From the IMG/VR virus record IMGVR_UViG_2695420343_000003: DNA of 45,821 bases. One strand, 5' to 3'. The DNA is from a virus. Taxonomy: Duplodnaviria > Heunggongvirae > Uroviricota > Caudoviricetes. How positions within the stretch are numbered: the first letter of the stretch is position 1; every line of letters begins with the position of its first letter. The notes beneath the pieces were generated by a model that had not been told where the DNA came from, searched no databases, and saw only the letters and a list, made by a program, of their open reading frames with translations. Positions 2,603 through 44,888 of the stretch are shown one piece after another. The position numbers and the translations under genes were made by a program.

Positions 2603-3655
2603 TCAGGAGCCGATATATTCTGGTTTCATATCTGTCAGTGTCGTTTTATACGCCTCATATAATTCTCCCAGATGTGGTCGTGCAGCATTCAGCGTATTTT
2701 CCAGAGCAATAAATTTTTGTTCTGCTTCTGGATCACCTGATGAAGGCAGGTCATTTATCATCGTCTCAATACGGGCAATAGCATTGAGACGGTGATGACG
2801 CTGAACCACTTTTCCTTTAAGTTCTGTGTAGAGAGCGCCAAGTGTATTTTTATGATCTTCCACTTCCTGGCGAAGTGATGTTGTTTCTCCGGTGCTTTGT
2901 GCCTGCTCAATACGTTCACGGAAAGCACTGATCCAGTTTTCCCCGGCATCCTGCTCAATAATTGTTGTTTCACGTTCCGCACGGCAGGCGGATGTATTTT
3001 TATGTTCCTGAACCGGATTAATGATTTTTTCCTGTGGTTCGTCCAGTTCGTCCCGGGTGTACACTCCAAGAATCACTTCAGGGCAATAAAGGCGCGCCCA
3101 GCGTTTCAGTGCCAGATAGGCAAGCTGCTGGCGAGGATCATCGGCCCATAACGTTGAGTTACGTGTTCTGGCCTGCGCCAGAAGTAACTCCAGTACGCGT
3201 GGCTTGCTCTCTCCGCGTAGTGTTGCCTGGACGCGAACTCCGATCCCGTTTTCATCGGCCAGCTTCCAGCCAGGTACACGATATTCTTTCCCCTTGTCGT
3301 TCTTCCTGATTTCAAATTTCCCGATAATTTTTTCCCACGGCCCGAACCAGTCATATTCAATACGCCCGGTTAACGGCCCACGAGTACTGATTACGGCATT
3401 AACCAGTTGCGCTTCATATCCGAGCACACCATTCACAACGAAAGTTTTCTGAGCTACTGCGTAAGGGTTCATTTGCCACTGCATCGCCTGCATGGTGATG
3501 GCCATGCAGTCTGATGGATTTCCCCGGAGGTGTTCCGGTACAGTAGCCATGCCGGAAGCCATTACCTGGGAAAATGTCTGAATTGCAGCCAGGGACTGAG
3601 GGCTGAAAACCGCAACATTAGAGTTAATATTTTCTTGTTGAGTTAATTCGTTCAT
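2603..3655 (-). CDS. Putative single-strand annealing recombinase (RecT-like partner of RecE)
   Basis: 350-aa ORF in the position of recT, directly upstream of recE on the same strand; call is from synteny, sequence differs from K-12 RecT. Confidence 0.5.
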   Translation of the reverse strand: MNELTQQENINSNVAVFSPQSLAAIQTFSQVMASGMATVPEHLRGNPSDCMAITMQAMQWQMNPYAVAQKTFVVNGVLGYEAQLVNAVISTRGPLTGRIEYDWFGPWEKIIGKFEIRKNDKGKEYRVPGWKLADENGIGVRVQATLRGESKPRVLELLLAQARTRNSTLWADDPRQQLAYLALKRWARLYCPEVILGVYTRDELDEPQEKIINPVQEHKNTSACRAERETTIIEQDAGENWISAFRERIEQAQSTGETTSLRQEVEDHKNTLGALYTELKGKVVQRHHRLNAIARIETMINDLPSSGDPEAEQKFIALENTLNAARPHLGELYEAYKTTLTDMKPEYIGS

Positions 3656-7635: not shown

Positions 7636-8059
7636 AATTATCTCCATTTTTACAAATGAATTTTGTCGATGCGGTGCCTGGTGCCTCCAGGTGACGTTAA
7701 CCAGTTAACAATTAACGCCGGATAATCCACCCATAACACTGATGCTTTTAACTGTTCCGCGTGCGCTTAGCCGCATTCACCGCATCACAAAATTCACTTT
7801 AAAAAGGGGCGGCAGGGCAGCCACGGAGTAGAACTGATGCCGCCAAAGACTACACAAAGCAATGTCGTTATTTACAACCGGAGGCGCACTCCCACCATTT
7901 AAATTTAACAGACAAGACCGACTCTTTATGGATACCGGAAATGCGCCTTCGTGTTGTGCCCGGTTTTATTTCACCACCTCCGGGCTTTGGTGGTATCTTT
8001 ACTGGAGTTCTCACACAACCAGTAAGGAAATGAATATGCCAACGTATCTCGCCAGAGTA

Positions 8060-39771: not shown

Positions 39772-40970
39772 TGGCTCTGAACCTTGATTCTCTCGGTTTA
39801 TCTGCAAAGGTAACCGCGGAGGGGATCAGTGCGCCTGATTATCAGACGATACTCAGCACCCTGATTAGCTATTTTCAGCAGATTTATGGCAGTGATGCCT
39901 ACCTCGAACCGGACAGCAAAGACGGTCAGATGATGGCTCTGATGGCGCTGGCGATTCATGATGCCAATAATACGGCGATAACTGTCTACAACTGTTTTTC
40001 ACCGGCAACCGGCTATGGGGCTGCACTGACCAGTAACGTGAAAATAAATGGTATTTCACGTAAAGGCGCGACGAACTCTACGGTTGATTTGCTTCTTACA
40101 GGAACTGCAGGAACAACCATCATTAATGGCAGCGTGAAAGACAGTAATAATGTGATATGGCGTTTGCCTGCTTCAGTGGTGGTCGGCGTGGATGGTACAG
40201 TGATGGCGACCGCAACATGTTCTGTCAGTGGTGCAGTGGCGGCGCTGGCTGGAACTATCACTGAAATTAATACGCCAACCCGTGGCTGGGTTTCGGTAAC
40301 CAATCCTGCTGCAGCTACTGTGGGCACTCCGGCAGAAACTGATGCGGAGTTACGTATCCGCCAGTCGCAAAGTGTTGCGTTGCCATCAATAACCCCATTT
40401 GAAGCACTGGATGGTGCTGTTTCTAATGTTACAGGTGTAACCCGCCACAAACTCTATGAAAACGATACTGGTTCGGAGGACGGTAACGGGTTACCGCCAC
40501 ACTCTGTTGCTGTGATTGTGGATGGCGGTGATGTGACGGATATTGCTCAGGCTATCAGAGGGAATAAAGGTCAGGGGACAGCCACTCACGGTACAACATC
40601 CGTTACGGTTCCGGATAAATACGGCAATCCCCATGTAATCAAGTTCTCGCGTTCCAGTGATGTACCTGTTTATGCCCGGATCAAATTAAAAGTTTTTACG
40701 GGTTATACCTCACAGATAGGGCAGCAGATCCAGCAGGCTATTTCCGACTATATCAATAGTCTGATGATTGGTGATTCGGTCCTTTTAAATCGCATTTACT
40801 CACCGGCGAATCTTGGCGTGGTGAGTGGCGGGAATGCACGCTATTACGATATTCAGGAACTGACGATTGGGAAATCCCCGGGGGCTTTGTCGTCATCAAA
40901 CATTGATATCAGATACAACGAACATGCGTCCTGTACCCCGGAAAATATCGTTATAACGGTGGAGTCATGA
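39771..40970 (+). CDS. Baseplate J-like protein
   Basis: 399 aa in canonical V-W-J-I-fibre order. Confidence 0.65.
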   Translation: MALNLDSLGLSAKVTAEGISAPDYQTILSTLISYFQQIYGSDAYLEPDSKDGQMMALMALAIHDANNTAITVYNCFSPATGYGAALTSNVKINGISRKGATNSTVDLLLTGTAGTTIINGSVKDSNNVIWRLPASVVVGVDGTVMATATCSVSGAVAALAGTITEINTPTRGWVSVTNPAAATVGTPAETDAELRIRQSQSVALPSITPFEALDGAVSNVTGVTRHKLYENDTGSEDGNGLPPHSVAVIVDGGDVTDIAQAIRGNKGQGTATHGTTSVTVPDKYGNPHVIKFSRSSDVPVYARIKLKVFTGYTSQIGQQIQQAISDYINSLMIGDSVLLNRIYSPANLGVVSGGNARYYDIQELTIGKSPGALSSSNIDIRYNEHASCTPENIVITVES

Positions 40971-41647
40971 GCAAATACACCGAACTAATCACGAACAACC
41001 ACGCCACCAAACCTAAATTTCTTGCACATGTTGATCTGATGACCCGGCCGCTTATTGATGTTGCGGCTGCCACCAGAGGGCTGATTACTGCATTTGATAT
41101 TGACTCTGCGGTTGGTGTGCAACTTGACATTCTTGGATTGTGGATCGGACGTAGCCGTGTTGTCAGCCAGCCTATCTCAGGTGTCTATTTCAGCTGGGAT
41201 ACCGACGGGCTTGGATATGATCAGGGGGTATGGCAGGGACCATACGATCCTGATTCAGGATACATGTATCTCAGCGATGAAACTTATCGTGTCATTCTTA
41301 AAGCGAAGATTGCGATTAATAACTGGGACGGACGGAATGATTCGCTTCCGGCAATTCTTGACGCGGCAACAGCAGGATCCGGGCTGCGAATGCAGATAGT
41401 CGATAACCAGGACATGACGATATCGGTCTGGGTCTTTCCTGATACTGATATTTCAGATGTATCGCGTGAGTTAATTGCGGCAATTAAACAGGGGTATCTC
41501 ACAGTAAAAGCCGCCGGGGTATGGGCGGGTGGCATTGAAACACCTTCGGTGGAAACCCCATCGGAAGGCTCAAAATTTTTTGGTTTTGATATGGATAACG
41601 AATTCATCAGTGGTTTTGATGTAGGAGCATGGGGAGTATTACTCTGA
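40967..41647 (+). CDS. Baseplate/tail protein (gpI-like)
   Basis: 226 aa; ATGA overlap with J-like gene. Confidence 0.5.
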
Positions 41648-42501
41648 TGGCGAAAAATGACTTTAAAGCGTTTGCAACGGATCGAAATGCCAATGTTATA
41701 TCGCAGGAGGAATGGGAAGCGTTGCCCGCGCTTTTATCTGGATTTACAGCAGGGAAAGCCTCCAGTGCGCAAGTCAATAAGGTTATTCGGCAGGCCAGCT
41801 TTATTGCTGCAGCTCTGGCCCAGTTTGTAAGTGATAAAACGCAACGGGATGTGCTTGATAATGGTGATCTGCCCGGTTTTGTTGAATTGCTGGGATCGGG
41901 GTTTGCTGTTGAATACCTGAGCCGCAAGAATCCGTTTGGTGATATCAAATCGGATGGCACGGTGGAAACGGCTCTCGAAAACCTTGGTTTGGGGGAAGGC
42001 TCTGCATTGCCTGTTGGTGTACCGGTTCCGTGGCCCACCGCCACACCGCCAGCAGGCTGGTTAAAGTGCGACGGGCGCGCCTTTACAAAAGAACAATATC
42101 CTGTTCTGGCCAGAGTCTACCCGACCCTCCGTCTTCCCGATTTGCGCGGTGAGTTTATCCGTGGATGGGACGACGGGCGCAAAGTTGATACAGGACGTAA
42201 GTTGCTGTCCGCACAAGGGGCAACGCTGTTAAGAACAGCAATGCTGGATTATTATAACCAGGACACTACGGGAACCTCGGGGATAGTCGGCATGGGATTC
42301 AACAATGAAGATTCCATTACAGACCTTCGTGAGGGCAGCTTTAAAATGCCGGACGGGACAACATTCAGCGATCCTGTCATAGCAATGTCAGACAATGGTA
42401 TGCAGGCTACTATTCTGACCTCTATCAGAAGCGGGTATGCGAAGGGTATCACTGTCAGACCCCGTAGCATTGCACTTAATTACATTGTGAGGGCAGTTTA
42501 A
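41647..42501 (+). CDS. Tail fibre protein (constant N-terminus + variable C-terminus Sv)
   Basis: Tail-collar-like segment …[65 protein letters not shown]…; alternative start 41629. Confidence 0.75.
41973..41998. repeat. Invertase crossover-like site (left), gix/pix-like
   Basis: Reverse complement ttcccccaaaccaaggttttcgagag; inverted partner ttcccccaaaccaacgtttatgaaaa at 43575..43600; bounds ~210-bp inverted homology (41986..42195 vs 43381..43590). Confidence 0.55.
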
Positions 42502-43115
42502 TGAGTAACACTGCAGTTCTGGATGAAAACGGTATCGCCACTGTAGCGGGCGATATCACTGTATATCACTATGACGAGGAAACCCGGGAATACACCTCAT
42601 CCTCTGTGGAGTATCTCGCCCTTGGGGTGGGTACTCCGGCACATTCGTGCGCCGATGCACCGCCGGAGGCAATTTCGGGTTACGTGGTTTGCCGGACTGC
42701 CACGCTGAACGGGTGGGAGCATGTGCCTGATCACCGCGGCGAGACGGTATACAGCACGGAGAACGGTAACCCCGTTCTGATTACCCAACCGGGTGATTAC
42801 CCGGCGGACACCACCACAAAACAGCCTGCCACACCATGGGATACCTGGAACGGTGAAGCGTGGGTAACTGATACTGAACGGCATAGAGCCGCAGAGCTGG
42901 AGACTGCCAGACTGCAACGCCAGAAACGGGTGGATCAGGCGATGAAGTCCATCGACCTCATCAACCTCAAACTGCGGGCAGGTCGCAGTCTGAAACCAGA
43001 AGAAACGGCAAAACTGAACGCCGTGCTGGATTATATCGACGAGCTGAACGCACTGGATATCAGCAAGGCACCTGAAATCAGCTGGCCGGAAGCGCCACTG
43101 GCGCTTGCCGGCTGA
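42501..43115 (+). CDS. Tail fibre assembly protein (Tfa)
   Basis: 204 aa immediately after fibre gene (TAATG overlap); C-terminal region typical of Tfa chaperones. Confidence 0.7.
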   Translation: MSNTAVLDENGIATVAGDITVYHYDEETREYTSSSVEYLALGVGTPAHSCADAPPEAISGYVVCRTATLNGWEHVPDHRGETVYSTENGNPVLITQPGDYPADTTTKQPATPWDTWNGEAWVTDTERHRAAELETARLQRQKRVDQAMKSIDLINLKLRAGRSLKPEETAKLNAVLDYIDELNALDISKAPEISWPEAPLALAG

Positions 43116-43121
43116 ACGGTA

Positions 43122-43586
43122 TCACGCCGCCCTCACGATATAGTTAAATGCGATATTGCGGGGGCGAGCTGATACATAAGCCCACCAGTCATATCTTTGT
43201 GCACCTTTAGAGGATGCATCAAATATCCACTTTTTGCCATTTATGACCCCCAGTTGATTAGAGGTTAAAGCGTCACCAAATCCGTATTGTGTAGAGCCGA
43301 GCGAACTGATATCTCCGGTATCATTATCATCAAAACCGGATACGATAGTCCCTTCCTGAAATGAAAGTAGCGCACGCCCGGTATCAACTTTGCGCCCGTC
43401 GTCCCATCCACGGATAAACTCACCGCGCAAATCGGGAAGACGGAGGGTCGGGTAGACTCTGGCCAGAACAGGATATTGTTCTTTGGTGAACGTAGCTCCG
43501 TTGCACTGTAACCAGCCTGCTGGCGGTGTGGCGGTGGGCCATGGAACCGGTACACCAACAGGCAATGCAGAGCCTTCCCCCAAACC
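43122..43586 (-). other. Silent alternative tail-fibre C-terminal cassette (Sv') in inverted orientation
   Basis: Minus-strand ORF sharing [26 protein letters not shown]…[34 protein letters not shown] with the expressed fibre, then diverging; no in-frame constant N-terminus in this orientation. Confidence 0.6.
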
Positions 43587-43600
43587 AACGTTTATGAAAA
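43575..43600. repeat. Invertase crossover-like site (right), gix/pix-like
   Basis: ttcccccaaaccaacgtttatgaaaa; imperfect dyad with AAACC half-sites; 55 bp upstream of truncated invertase gene. Confidence 0.55.
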
Positions 43601-43654
43601 TGCAGAAATAACGAGCAAATGGCATCATTCCTGCTTTTGTCAGGGAGATCTACC

Positions 43655-43750
43655 ATGCTTATTGGCTATGTACGTGTGTCAACAAATGACCAGAACACAG
43701 ATCTACAACGTAATGCGCTGAACTGTGCAGGATGCGAGCTGATTTTTTGA
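43655..43750 (+). pseudogene. Truncated DNA invertase (Pin/Gin/Hin family serine recombinase), 31 codons
   Basis: MLIGYVRVSTNDQNTDLQRNALNCAGCELIF* matches recalled N-terminus of Pin/Gin including catalytic Ser in VRVSTNDQ; GGGAGA RBS; downstream sequence unrelated. Confidence 0.75.
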
Positions 43751-44040
43751 GGGTAAATCATCAGCATGAGACTAATAATTTAGCGTCCAATTCTGGTTTT
43801 TTTGGTTGCGCTCTCCCCGCCCAGAATTGTGCGTCAATTAGCCCAGAAAAACGCGAAGTTACAAATGTCGACCATTTTCGAACATGGTGTGAGGTGTCAC
43901 ATCTTGGTAGTACGTTGCAGTATTTCGTGGCGTATGGTGAGAAGATAAACCCGGTGAGTGAACATCGTATGACGTAGAAGAACATGTGCGACATGGGATA
44001 AAATAGCCCATTAATAATCCACAGATAAACGGAGGTAGTA

Positions 44041-44229
44041 ATGTGTGATGTAACGCATGATAACGGGTACAGCTTTGAGGAATGGCTGGAGGAACTGAAA
44101 GCATGTGCATCTGCGCAAGGAGACACCGTTAATGCGGACAATAATGACTGGTTTGGTGATGCTGAATGGTACGATGACTACAAGATGGAGGTGTGTGCTT
44201 GTGAGGCGTATCATCATAAGTTTGGATAG
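44041..44229 (+). CDS. Hypothetical small acidic Cys-containing protein (62 aa)
   Basis: Strong RBS GGAGG 5 nt upstream; D/E-rich (MCDVTHDNGYSFEEWLEELKACASAQGDTVNADNNDWFGDAEWYDDYKMEVCACEAYHHKFG). Confidence 0.45.
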   Translation: MCDVTHDNGYSFEEWLEELKACASAQGDTVNADNNDWFGDAEWYDDYKMEVCACEAYHHKFG

Positions 44230-44728
44230 TGCAGCATAATATTATACCCCGCGCTTGGTATGTTTAAGCGGGGGTATTGTCCTAACCCGAATAAATTATT
44301 GCTCAATTATGAGGGGAGGATTTGTAGCTTCCCCTTTCGTCTGAAATTGCCAGTTAGTTTGTCCAAAAAGTCACGAAGCAACACATACGAAATAATTTAA
44401 AGAGTTATTTGTCTAATGTTGAAAGCCGCAGCCACGTCGTATGCAAGAACGTGCCACGGCTGGCTGATGGACGTTCGATAGCGCGAGTTTGAATGAAAAT
44501 CAGCCGGAGGTGATTTTACATAATTGTTGCGGAATCATTCAATATAGGGATTGCTTATTTCTGCCTGGATTGGTCTGAAATAGTCCCGAAATTTTCTCTA
44601 AAAAACTCGAAAAAAATGGTAACTAATTGAATGCATTAATATGCAATGGTACGTGTTTGGGATTAAAAGATGAGCGTAATTTTGCTTAACAAATTAATTT
44701 AAAAAGGGTTTCTTGTTTGTTGACGAAA

Positions 44729-44748
44729 ACAGGAATCGTGTTCGGTCT
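44729..44748 (+). repeat. attR core (direct repeat with attL); displaced 3' fragment of sdsR
   Basis: acaggaatcgtgttcggtct + ctttttat; duplicate of the sdsR terminator region found at 577..596. Confidence 0.6.
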
Positions 44749-44888
44749 CTTTTTATCTGTTAAAAGCCAGAAGCATTCCCTTCGCTGACTTTATAGTCAA
44801 CCATAACACACACTCTACTGTCTGAGTCCAGCGTTTTTTAACATTCTTGTTAAGATTATGTGATCTTTAGCGCGGGAGGAAAATATTG

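Follow-up and report, generated by a model that had tools for sequence, protein, structure and literature searches.

A Pin/Gin-type tail-fibre switch without its own invertase, joined to a Mu-like phage end inside a lambdoid prophage

Introduction

The tail-fibre switches of phage Mu (G segment, invertase Gin), phage P1 (C segment, Cin) and the Escherichia coli prophage e14 (P segment, PinE) share a layout in which the constant N-terminus of the fibre (Sc) lies outside an invertible segment and two opposed, variable C-termini (Sv and Sv') lie inside it. Systems of the Gin/Cin/Pin/Hin class have two inverted 26-bp crossover sites and, adjacent to them, a full serine recombinase gene. Here we consider a 45,821-nucleotide stretch of DNA from a virus of the Caudoviricetes (IMG/VR record IMGVR_UViG_2695420343_000003), referred to throughout as the window, near the right end of which the outlying constant N-terminus, the two opposed C-termini and the two inverted 26-bp sites are all found, and the adjacent full recombinase gene is not. 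In its place stand the first 31 codons of a serine invertase gene, followed directly by what aligns as the right terminus of a Mu-like transposable phage. We consider it probable that this is a switch of the Pin/Gin type whose cis-acting parts look complete, whose own invertase is gone and which can still be flipped in trans, provided that its host supplies an invertase, presumably from another prophage.

Inversion of one prophage's segment by the enzyme of another is already known. PinQ and PinR, of the Qin and Rac prophages, invert the e14 P segment at TTGGTTTGGGAGAAGG and CCTTCTCCCAAACCAA, PinE complements Mu gin and inverts the H segment of Salmonella, and Fin of Fels-2 inverts the H segment as well (PMC12529663). 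Invertible segments without a nearby recombinase have also been described in general (PMC9881135). Three things are new here: the 5' end of an invertase gene is joined, precisely and recurrently, to a Mu-type terminus; there is a Mu-like prophage lineage without gin and mom that still flips; and the junction also occurs inside a lambdoid prophage.

Organisation of the invertible segment

The region from 41.6 to 43.9 kb forms the end of the prophage tail module, where a DUF2612 baseplate gene (40967–41647) precedes the fibre gene. Its features are as follows, with a strand where one applies:

41647..42501, plus strand: expressed tail-fibre gene, Sc fused in frame to Sv (open reading frame (ORF); Pfam Collar PF07484, E=2.7e-15)
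41972..41997: left 26-bp crossover site (pix/gix type), within the fibre gene; reverse complement TTCCCCCAAACCAAGGTTTTCGAGAG; 25/26 positions as in e14 pix
41979..42209: left repeat arm, encoding the shared collar domain (fibre residues 124–171)
42501..43115, plus strand: tfa, the sole chaperone gene of the segment (Pfam Caudo_TAP, E=2e-26; PHROG 105, 'tail fiber assembly')
43122..43590, minus strand: silent Sv' cassette, without a tfa of its own (Pfam Collar, E=1.1e-15; PHROG 523, 'tail collar fiber protein')
43363..43593: right repeat arm (inverted-repeat search)
43575..43600: right 26-bp crossover site, TTCCCCCAAACCAACGTTTATGAAAA; 25/26 positions as in e14 pix
43655..43750, plus strand: invertase stub, 31 codons and TGA (Pfam Resolvase, positions 2–29 of 145)
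43676..43739: putative Fis-dependent recombinational enhancer (homology to e14 pinE and Mu gin)
43748..43863, plus strand: orphan right terminus (attR type) of a Mu-like transposable phage, 116 bp, ending ...GAAGTTACA (alignment)

The switch is framed by a 231-nucleotide inverted repeat, the arms of which are 92% complementary and spaced 1153 nucleotides apart, and which corresponds to the collar-domain coding sequence common to both alternative C-termini. The segment that it frames, of about 1.6 kb, contains the C-terminus of the fibre, a single tfa and, on the minus strand, the alternative collar-domain C-terminus. The 26-bp crossover-type sites sit at the outer ends of the arms; each differs at one position of 26 from the e14 pix sites as read from E. 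coli K-12, and the AAACC-NN-GGTTT core of both is also present in Mu gix. The left site is spanned by the fibre ORF and marks the end of Sc, with the collar domain forming part of Sv. The longest ORF for the fibre gene begins at 41629 and the mechanical ORF of the Sv' cassette on the opposite strand extends to 43628, while the start of tfa overlaps the fibre stop codon (TAATG). In the 99.2% identical locus of strain UPEC 26-1 the fibre gene is labelled 'phage tail protein'.

The original prediction, made from the letters of the window, had described a tail-fibre inversion module of the Gin/Cin/Pin type with a silent alternative cassette, and this description is correct. The repeat of about 210 bp that it had placed at 41986..42195 and 43381..43590 is real, its limits being slightly wider, and both of the gix/pix-like 26-bp sites proposed to bound it were found.

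The invertase stub

The stub begins with an ATG at 43655, 55 nucleotides past the right crossover site, encodes MLIGYVRVSTNDQNTDLQRNALNCAGCELIF and ends at a TGA at 43748–43750, so the invertase ORF does stop after 31 codons as had been predicted. It retains the catalytic-serine motif and nothing further of the enzyme, HTH_7 being absent. All 93 of its nucleotides are identical to the intact pinE of UPEC 26-1, and homology stops after 43747. Searches of the whole 45.8-kb window by tblastn with PinE and Gin returned no other invertase-like coding sequence; a PinE match at 44554–44679 (E=0.099) was treated as chance because its frame has stop codons.

Two simpler accounts of the truncation were rejected. 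A nonsense mutation in a full-length gene does not fit, since pinE homology ends at 43747 and no C-terminal invertase sequence is found in the window. Nor is the truncation an error of sequencing or annotation, because 19 independent complete genomes have exactly this junction; the correction to a full-length invertase that the original prediction had named as its own possible undoing did not materialise.

Inversion in relatives with and without an invertase

The same switch is found beside an intact invertase in UPEC 26-1 (L001), CREC-544 and NCTC9022 (L015 and L016), which share one prophage at a common site between yfhH and tadA, with a full-length pinE (Resolvase and HTH_7). Both 26-bp sites of the window are identical to those of UPEC 26-1, and the mismatches between the two number 0 in 400 nucleotides to the left, 19 in the 1,605-bp segment and 1 in 160 nucleotides to the right. 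Relative to UPEC 26-1, the segment is inverted in CREC-544 and NCTC9022. A patch of the repeat arms (42065–42090 and 43482–43507, at offsets 80–103 from the site centres) stays with its flank in CREC-544 and is homogenised in NCTC9022, and because the arm differences among the window and these two loci are patchy in this way, they indicate gene conversion or crossover inside the arms.

Inversion is seen also in prophages that carry the stub as their only invertase sequence. The stub-only Mu-like prophage of strains 20KM0223N and MEI148-20EC (L010 and L011) occupies the same yeiP site in both, and the two 9,176-nucleotide loci are identical but for an exact 1,844-bp reverse-complement whose ends lie within ...AAACCTTGGTTTGGGAGAAG and CTTCTCCCAAACCAAC.... 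The inverted repetition there extends over only about 15 bp, which makes homologous recombination implausible and marks the event as a site-specific inversion. In a second stub-only case (L003 and L004, from E2348/69 and tcmA_3), the same 1,906-bp segment stands in opposite orientations. The genomes of L010 and L011 each have two further places matching the chimeric query used in the genome search, most likely through its invertase C-terminal half. Invertase-like matches are common in E. coli, with a median of 2 places per genome (for a query that includes the eutC flank).

The window's switch had been described as locked unless an invertase from another prophage acts in trans. Dependence on an invertase in trans is correct, but 'locked' is too strong as the default state, because stub-only relatives occur in both orientations and inversion in trans is documented. 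We think it likely that the switch needs an outside invertase and is not dead.

A single tfa gene as the native layout

It had also been predicted that the only tfa of the segment would be left in the wrong orientation by a flip. This state can be seen directly in CREC-544 and NCTC9022, where the flipped segment gives an 804-nucleotide Sc–Sv' fibre gene followed by a convergent tfa. The single tfa does not hold as a feature of decay, since the same segment, 99% identical, lies beside an intact pinE and in both orientations; because the invertase-proficient relatives share it, the layout is native design. Paired chaperone genes, with one tfa for each fibre end, occur neither in the window nor in those relatives. 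A P2-like prophage record has the Sv' cassette at 98.8% identity, there too lacking a tfa and next to a second cassette that has none. The alternative C-termini finish in a common motif (...R.IA.NYIVRA.). A promoter scan predicted no leftward promoter near 43590–43660 that could express tfa after a flip. The fibre tip may do without a chaperone of its own, or else Tfa may be provided by another route.

A putative Fis enhancer within the stub

Invertases that depend on Fis require an enhancer in cis. Work by Kahmann et al. in 1985, Huber et al. in 1985 and Hübner and Arber in 1989 is said to have placed the enhancers of gin, cin and pin inside the gene. The stub of the window contains two 15-bp G...C cores, GTGTCAACAAATGAC (43676–43690) and GTGCAGGATGCGAGC (43725–43739), separated by a spacer that includes ATCTA and TAATG. 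When the stub is aligned with e14 pinE and Mu gin, the first Fis-like core lies 95.5 bp from the centre of the crossover site in the window and in Mu alike, and the breakpoint falls 8 bp beyond the second, so that the putative enhancer stretch is fully kept and is identical to that of the intact pinE allele. The enhancer of hin, which is located 'on the hin gene' (PMC9368917), measures 65 bp, carries Fis sites at both of its ends and is separated from hixL by about 100 bp; ATTTA and TAATG stand between the two sites, and wild-type Hin is inactive without Fis/enhancer (PMC3798978). The stub thus appears to hold a homologue of the whole enhancer, and enhancer function is likely. Deletion of pinE locks the e14 P segment although PinQ and PinR are present (PMC12529663); a cis element inside pinE would fit this lock, which is our own reading of it, while loss of PinE itself may explain it.

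The Mu-like right end and its recurrent junction

The sequence after the stub, taken in the original prediction to be unrelated, is a recognisable Mu-like terminus: by alignment, 43748–43863 belongs to a Mu-like transposable phage, as its right end. It is about 92–95% identical to the last 116–118 nucleotides of Mu-like prophages in other E. coli genomes, and prophages sitting in different, often interrupted, host genes end in the longer interval 43573–43863 with about 92% identity. In a multiple alignment the breakpoint comes after ...GAGCTGATTTTT, which is invertase nucleotide 93; 116–118 conserved nucleotides follow, and then locus-specific host DNA (eutC, the melA side, a molybdopterin oxidoreductase gene, scpC, mhpT, an RHS/IS region, yeiP and hyfB). 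Loci L003–L012 align with 43748–43863 up to ...GTTACA, with similarity ending exactly at the terminal CA.

The junction between stub and Mu-like end is base-identical in all stub loci that were fetched and aligned (L002–L005 and L007–L012). What had been read as local decay of the invertase is instead an inherited junction, found at the same base in prophages at many chromosomal sites, and the alignments mark it as a lineage character of Mu-like prophages without gin and mom. Nineteen of 5,426 complete E. coli genomes contain it, 17 in the Mu-like version and 2 (the OkiPb strains) in the lambdoid prophage adjacent to pphA, as in the window; a scan of one genome per species gave no match.

The junction carrier that was checked whole, in E2348/69, is a complete Mu-like prophage that splits eutC in two and has genes for a repressor, a Mu-type transposase (MuA-like), a MuB-like ATPase, Mor, and Mu-type head and tail proteins. 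A CCCAGAA....GCG motif stands beside the terminus in the window as two direct copies (43820 and 43842, 22 bp apart), and the E2348/69 prophage has three inverted copies of it at its left end (inverted TTCTGGGCG repeats). This combination of direct and inverted copies is the one expected for transposase-binding sites at the ends of Mu. The eutC flanks of the E2348/69 prophage read ...ACACT/TG... and ...CA/CACTG... (the slash marking the prophage limit), of which just 4 bp match unambiguously where a 5-bp target-site duplication was sought.

Two of the loci compared show other arrangements. E. coli 401651 (L021) has a related transposable-phage right end at 3501–3591, 85% identical over the terminal ~90 nucleotides; the element is inserted in ompW, and its right end comes immediately after a DUF4376 gene and a long fibre gene, without any inversion module. 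The stub-only Mu-like prophage of E. coli 47-1826 (L005) has three crossover-type sites, at 1201, 3076 and 3515, and two alternative fibre cassettes in tandem, an arrangement for multiple inversions that recalls P1-type/Min systems.

The host prophage and the history of the junction

The prophage in the window is lambdoid and not transposable, with an integrase-sized ORF (734–1810) and an att core repeat. It is bounded by an 11-bp direct repeat, ACAGGAATCGT, at 577–587 and 44729–44739. The left copy falls in the 3' part of the SdsR/RyeA small RNA (sRNA) locus (462–606) and the sequence in common with K-12 begins again at about 44724, directly ahead of pphA, placing integration at sdsR/pphA. 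MuA/MuB-type genes and a matching left end, which the E2348/69 relative possesses, are absent from the window. A search with the end sequence gave only the copy at 43843–43863 and no second Mu-type end in the window, and an exact search of the window for the paired CCCAGAA....GCG motif gave only the two copies already described. Because there is no second end and the prophage is lambdoid, the Mu-type end is an orphan; the right arm in which it lies, at a depth of 860 bp, is that of a prophage integrated site-specifically. What follows it belongs to the context and not to the switch:

43864..44739: rest of the lambdoid right arm, up to the att core (K-12 comparison, direct repeat)

The full right arm (43865–44885) is found in only 2 of the 5,426 complete E. 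coli genomes. Mu-like similarity stops exactly at the terminal CA in the window too, which implies that the 43863/43864 junction was probably made by a transposition event; we infer that later recombination deleted the remaining Mu-like genome. The stubs of the Mu-like loci (L003–L012) are about 87% identical to that of the window, differing at 12 of 93 positions, and the breakpoint base is identical. Because the window stub is identical to pinE and those of the Mu-like loci are not, the crossover that presumably gave the present structure must have fallen within the last 12 identical bases, or gene conversion must have taken place.

The lambdoid prophage of E. coli OkiPb01676 (L002) has the same insertion site and the same stub with a different cassette, which has two tfa genes and is of the Mu-like type. 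When 41940–43587 of the window is compared with this locus, the sequences become identical again inside the right 26-bp site and, on the other side, about 40 nucleotides to the left of the left site, which suggests a possible exchange of cassettes at or near the crossover sites.

Elsewhere in the prophage, gathering-score matches to Rfam place RalA (the antitoxin sRNA of RalR) at 2168–2346 and the DicF sRNA at 7807–7858, in the early region. Between the Mu-type end and attR, an ORF at 44041–44229 encodes an acidic, Cys-containing protein of 62 amino acids; PHROG 519 (unknown function) is matched at E=2e-5, and none of the Pfam families is.

Proposed mechanism and alternative explanations

In the present orientation, the late transcript would produce the Sc–Sv fibre together with its chaperone Tfa, and inversion between the 26-bp sites would instead join Sc to Sv', the other C-terminus with a collar domain. 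The prophage cannot flip the segment on its own. A Pin/Gin/Cin-type serine invertase of another prophage in the same cell would bind both sites, and it would be activated by Fis bound to the enhancer inside the retained 93-nucleotide stub. The stub belongs to an inherited junction at which invertase nucleotide 93 meets the 116-bp Mu-like right end; its origin may have been an earlier Mu-like insertion, followed by recombination.

Several observations weigh against this account. The case for flipping of the window copy itself, a locus represented by a single sequence, is drawn from its relatives, and that for enhancer function from homology. The native distal flank of the second 15-bp core is only 8 bp long, while Fis also contacts the flanks of its cores, and a breakpoint placed at random in the 555-nucleotide gene would spare the enhancer in about 85% of cases. 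All four E2348/69 assemblies are in one orientation despite three more distant invertase-like matches in the genome, consensus assemblies reporting the majority orientation only. The history of the junction, moreover, appears to involve recombination that is not reconstructable with certainty, the window stub being 100% pinE-like and the Mu-like stubs about 87%.

A rival view is that the locus is a dead remnant, with its segment permanently frozen in the Sv/Tfa orientation and its sites and repeats spared from decay by too little time. In its favour, the invertase is reduced to 31 codons with no other in the window, the stub-only prophage of the four E2348/69 assemblies shows a single orientation, and in the search the coverage pattern was the same for both OkiPb genomes, which share this lambdoid prophage and its stub. 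We nevertheless think this view unlikely, as the cis sites are identical to those of relatives that flip, stub-only prophages occur in both orientations (one pair of loci differing by the inversion alone), invertase-like genes are common in E. coli, and inversion in trans by the invertases of other prophages is experimentally established (PMC12529663). It is very improbable that inversion, where it occurs, is mainly the work of RecA-dependent homologous recombination between the 231-bp, 92% arms, with neither invertase nor enhancer involved. The arms are long enough for RecA and the exchange between them, as seen among the window, CREC-544 and NCTC9022, is patchy; however, the repeat stops on its outer sides precisely at canonical 26-bp sites, and Mu-like relatives with the same sites but a repeat of about 15 bp invert exactly at the site. 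Patchy conversion near crossover sites is, besides, a known by-product of invertases (Iida and Hiestand-Nauer 1986, as cited in PMC4406740).

A different question is whether the loss of the invertase was selected. A transposable-phage lineage could have dropped gin and mom, kept the two sites and the enhancer, and outsourced its switching to co-resident prophages, a design for which we see a limited chance. In its favour, the junction is base-conserved over at least 9 independent insertion sites, the E2348/69 element is complete, the breakpoint lies only 8 bp past the predicted distal Fis core and the segment flips in stub-only elements. Against it, a single ancestral junction is common to all carriers and its conservation may be simple descent. 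Because most random breakpoints would spare the enhancer, its retention is not evidence of selection, and a comparison of the two stub alleles gave no signal of conservation in the Fis cores, with differences at 4/30 positions in the cores against 6/34 in the spacer. It is similarly doubtful, though conceivable, that the stub has been kept as a Fis enhancer by invertase-less transposable phages and that module and attR end were then captured by an unrelated lambdoid prophage. If such a streamlined module was captured, flipping could serve the host too, as reported for e14, via receptor-masking fibre proteins.

Implications

Annotators meeting a truncated invertase beside a fibre segment read a dead switch, yet relatives with the same stub flip, and such loci call for a different reading. 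If outside control of this kind proves general, the host range of some prophages, and possibly the receptor masking of their lysogens, would be set by co-resident prophages. An orphan Mu-type end in a lambdoid prophage is also a clear marker of recombination between transposable and site-specifically integrating phages, and the Mu-like lineage offers natural material for testing in vivo whether the enhancer inside the invertase gene is needed in cis.

Comparison with known systems

The e14 P segment and PinE resemble the window in both crossover sites (25/26), in the constant fibre part and in an invertase start about 55 nucleotides past the right site, and the first 93 nucleotides of the e14 invertase gene are about 97% identical to the window stub. 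The P segment is, moreover, known to be flipped by the invertases of other prophages (PMC12529663). The two differ in that pinE is full-length in e14 and is accompanied by both tfaE and tfaP, whereas the window stops at codon 31, continues into a Mu-like end and has one tfa; in the window, too, the alternative C-termini are collar-domain cassettes with a shared repeat of 231 bp.

The Mu G segment and Gin have in common with the window the joining of Sc to Sv or Sv', the core of the 26-bp site and an invertase gene immediately to the right, Gin being 90% identical to the stub over 31 residues. Unlike the window, Mu has U and U' and an intact gin, followed by com/mom and then attR. The Mu-like lineage differs from Mu in having no gin past nucleotide 93 and no mom, with the attR end directly next, and its terminal 116 nucleotides were not alignable by eye with Mu's own right end.

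Closer still are two groups of E. coli prophages. The complete transposable elements of the E2348/69 type, represented by the eutC prophage and its relatives, share with the window an identical stub/right-end junction and the same 26-bp sites, but have YmfQ-type baseplate genes, two-tfa segments and stubs only about 87% identical. The prophage of UPEC 26-1, CREC-544 and NCTC9022, with its DUF2612-type baseplate, is 99.2% identical over the fibre gene, the segment and the first 93 nucleotides of the invertase gene, and this family has the same single tfa and the same Sv' cassette; it differs in its complete pinE of 184 amino acids, where the window has the stub and the Mu-like end.

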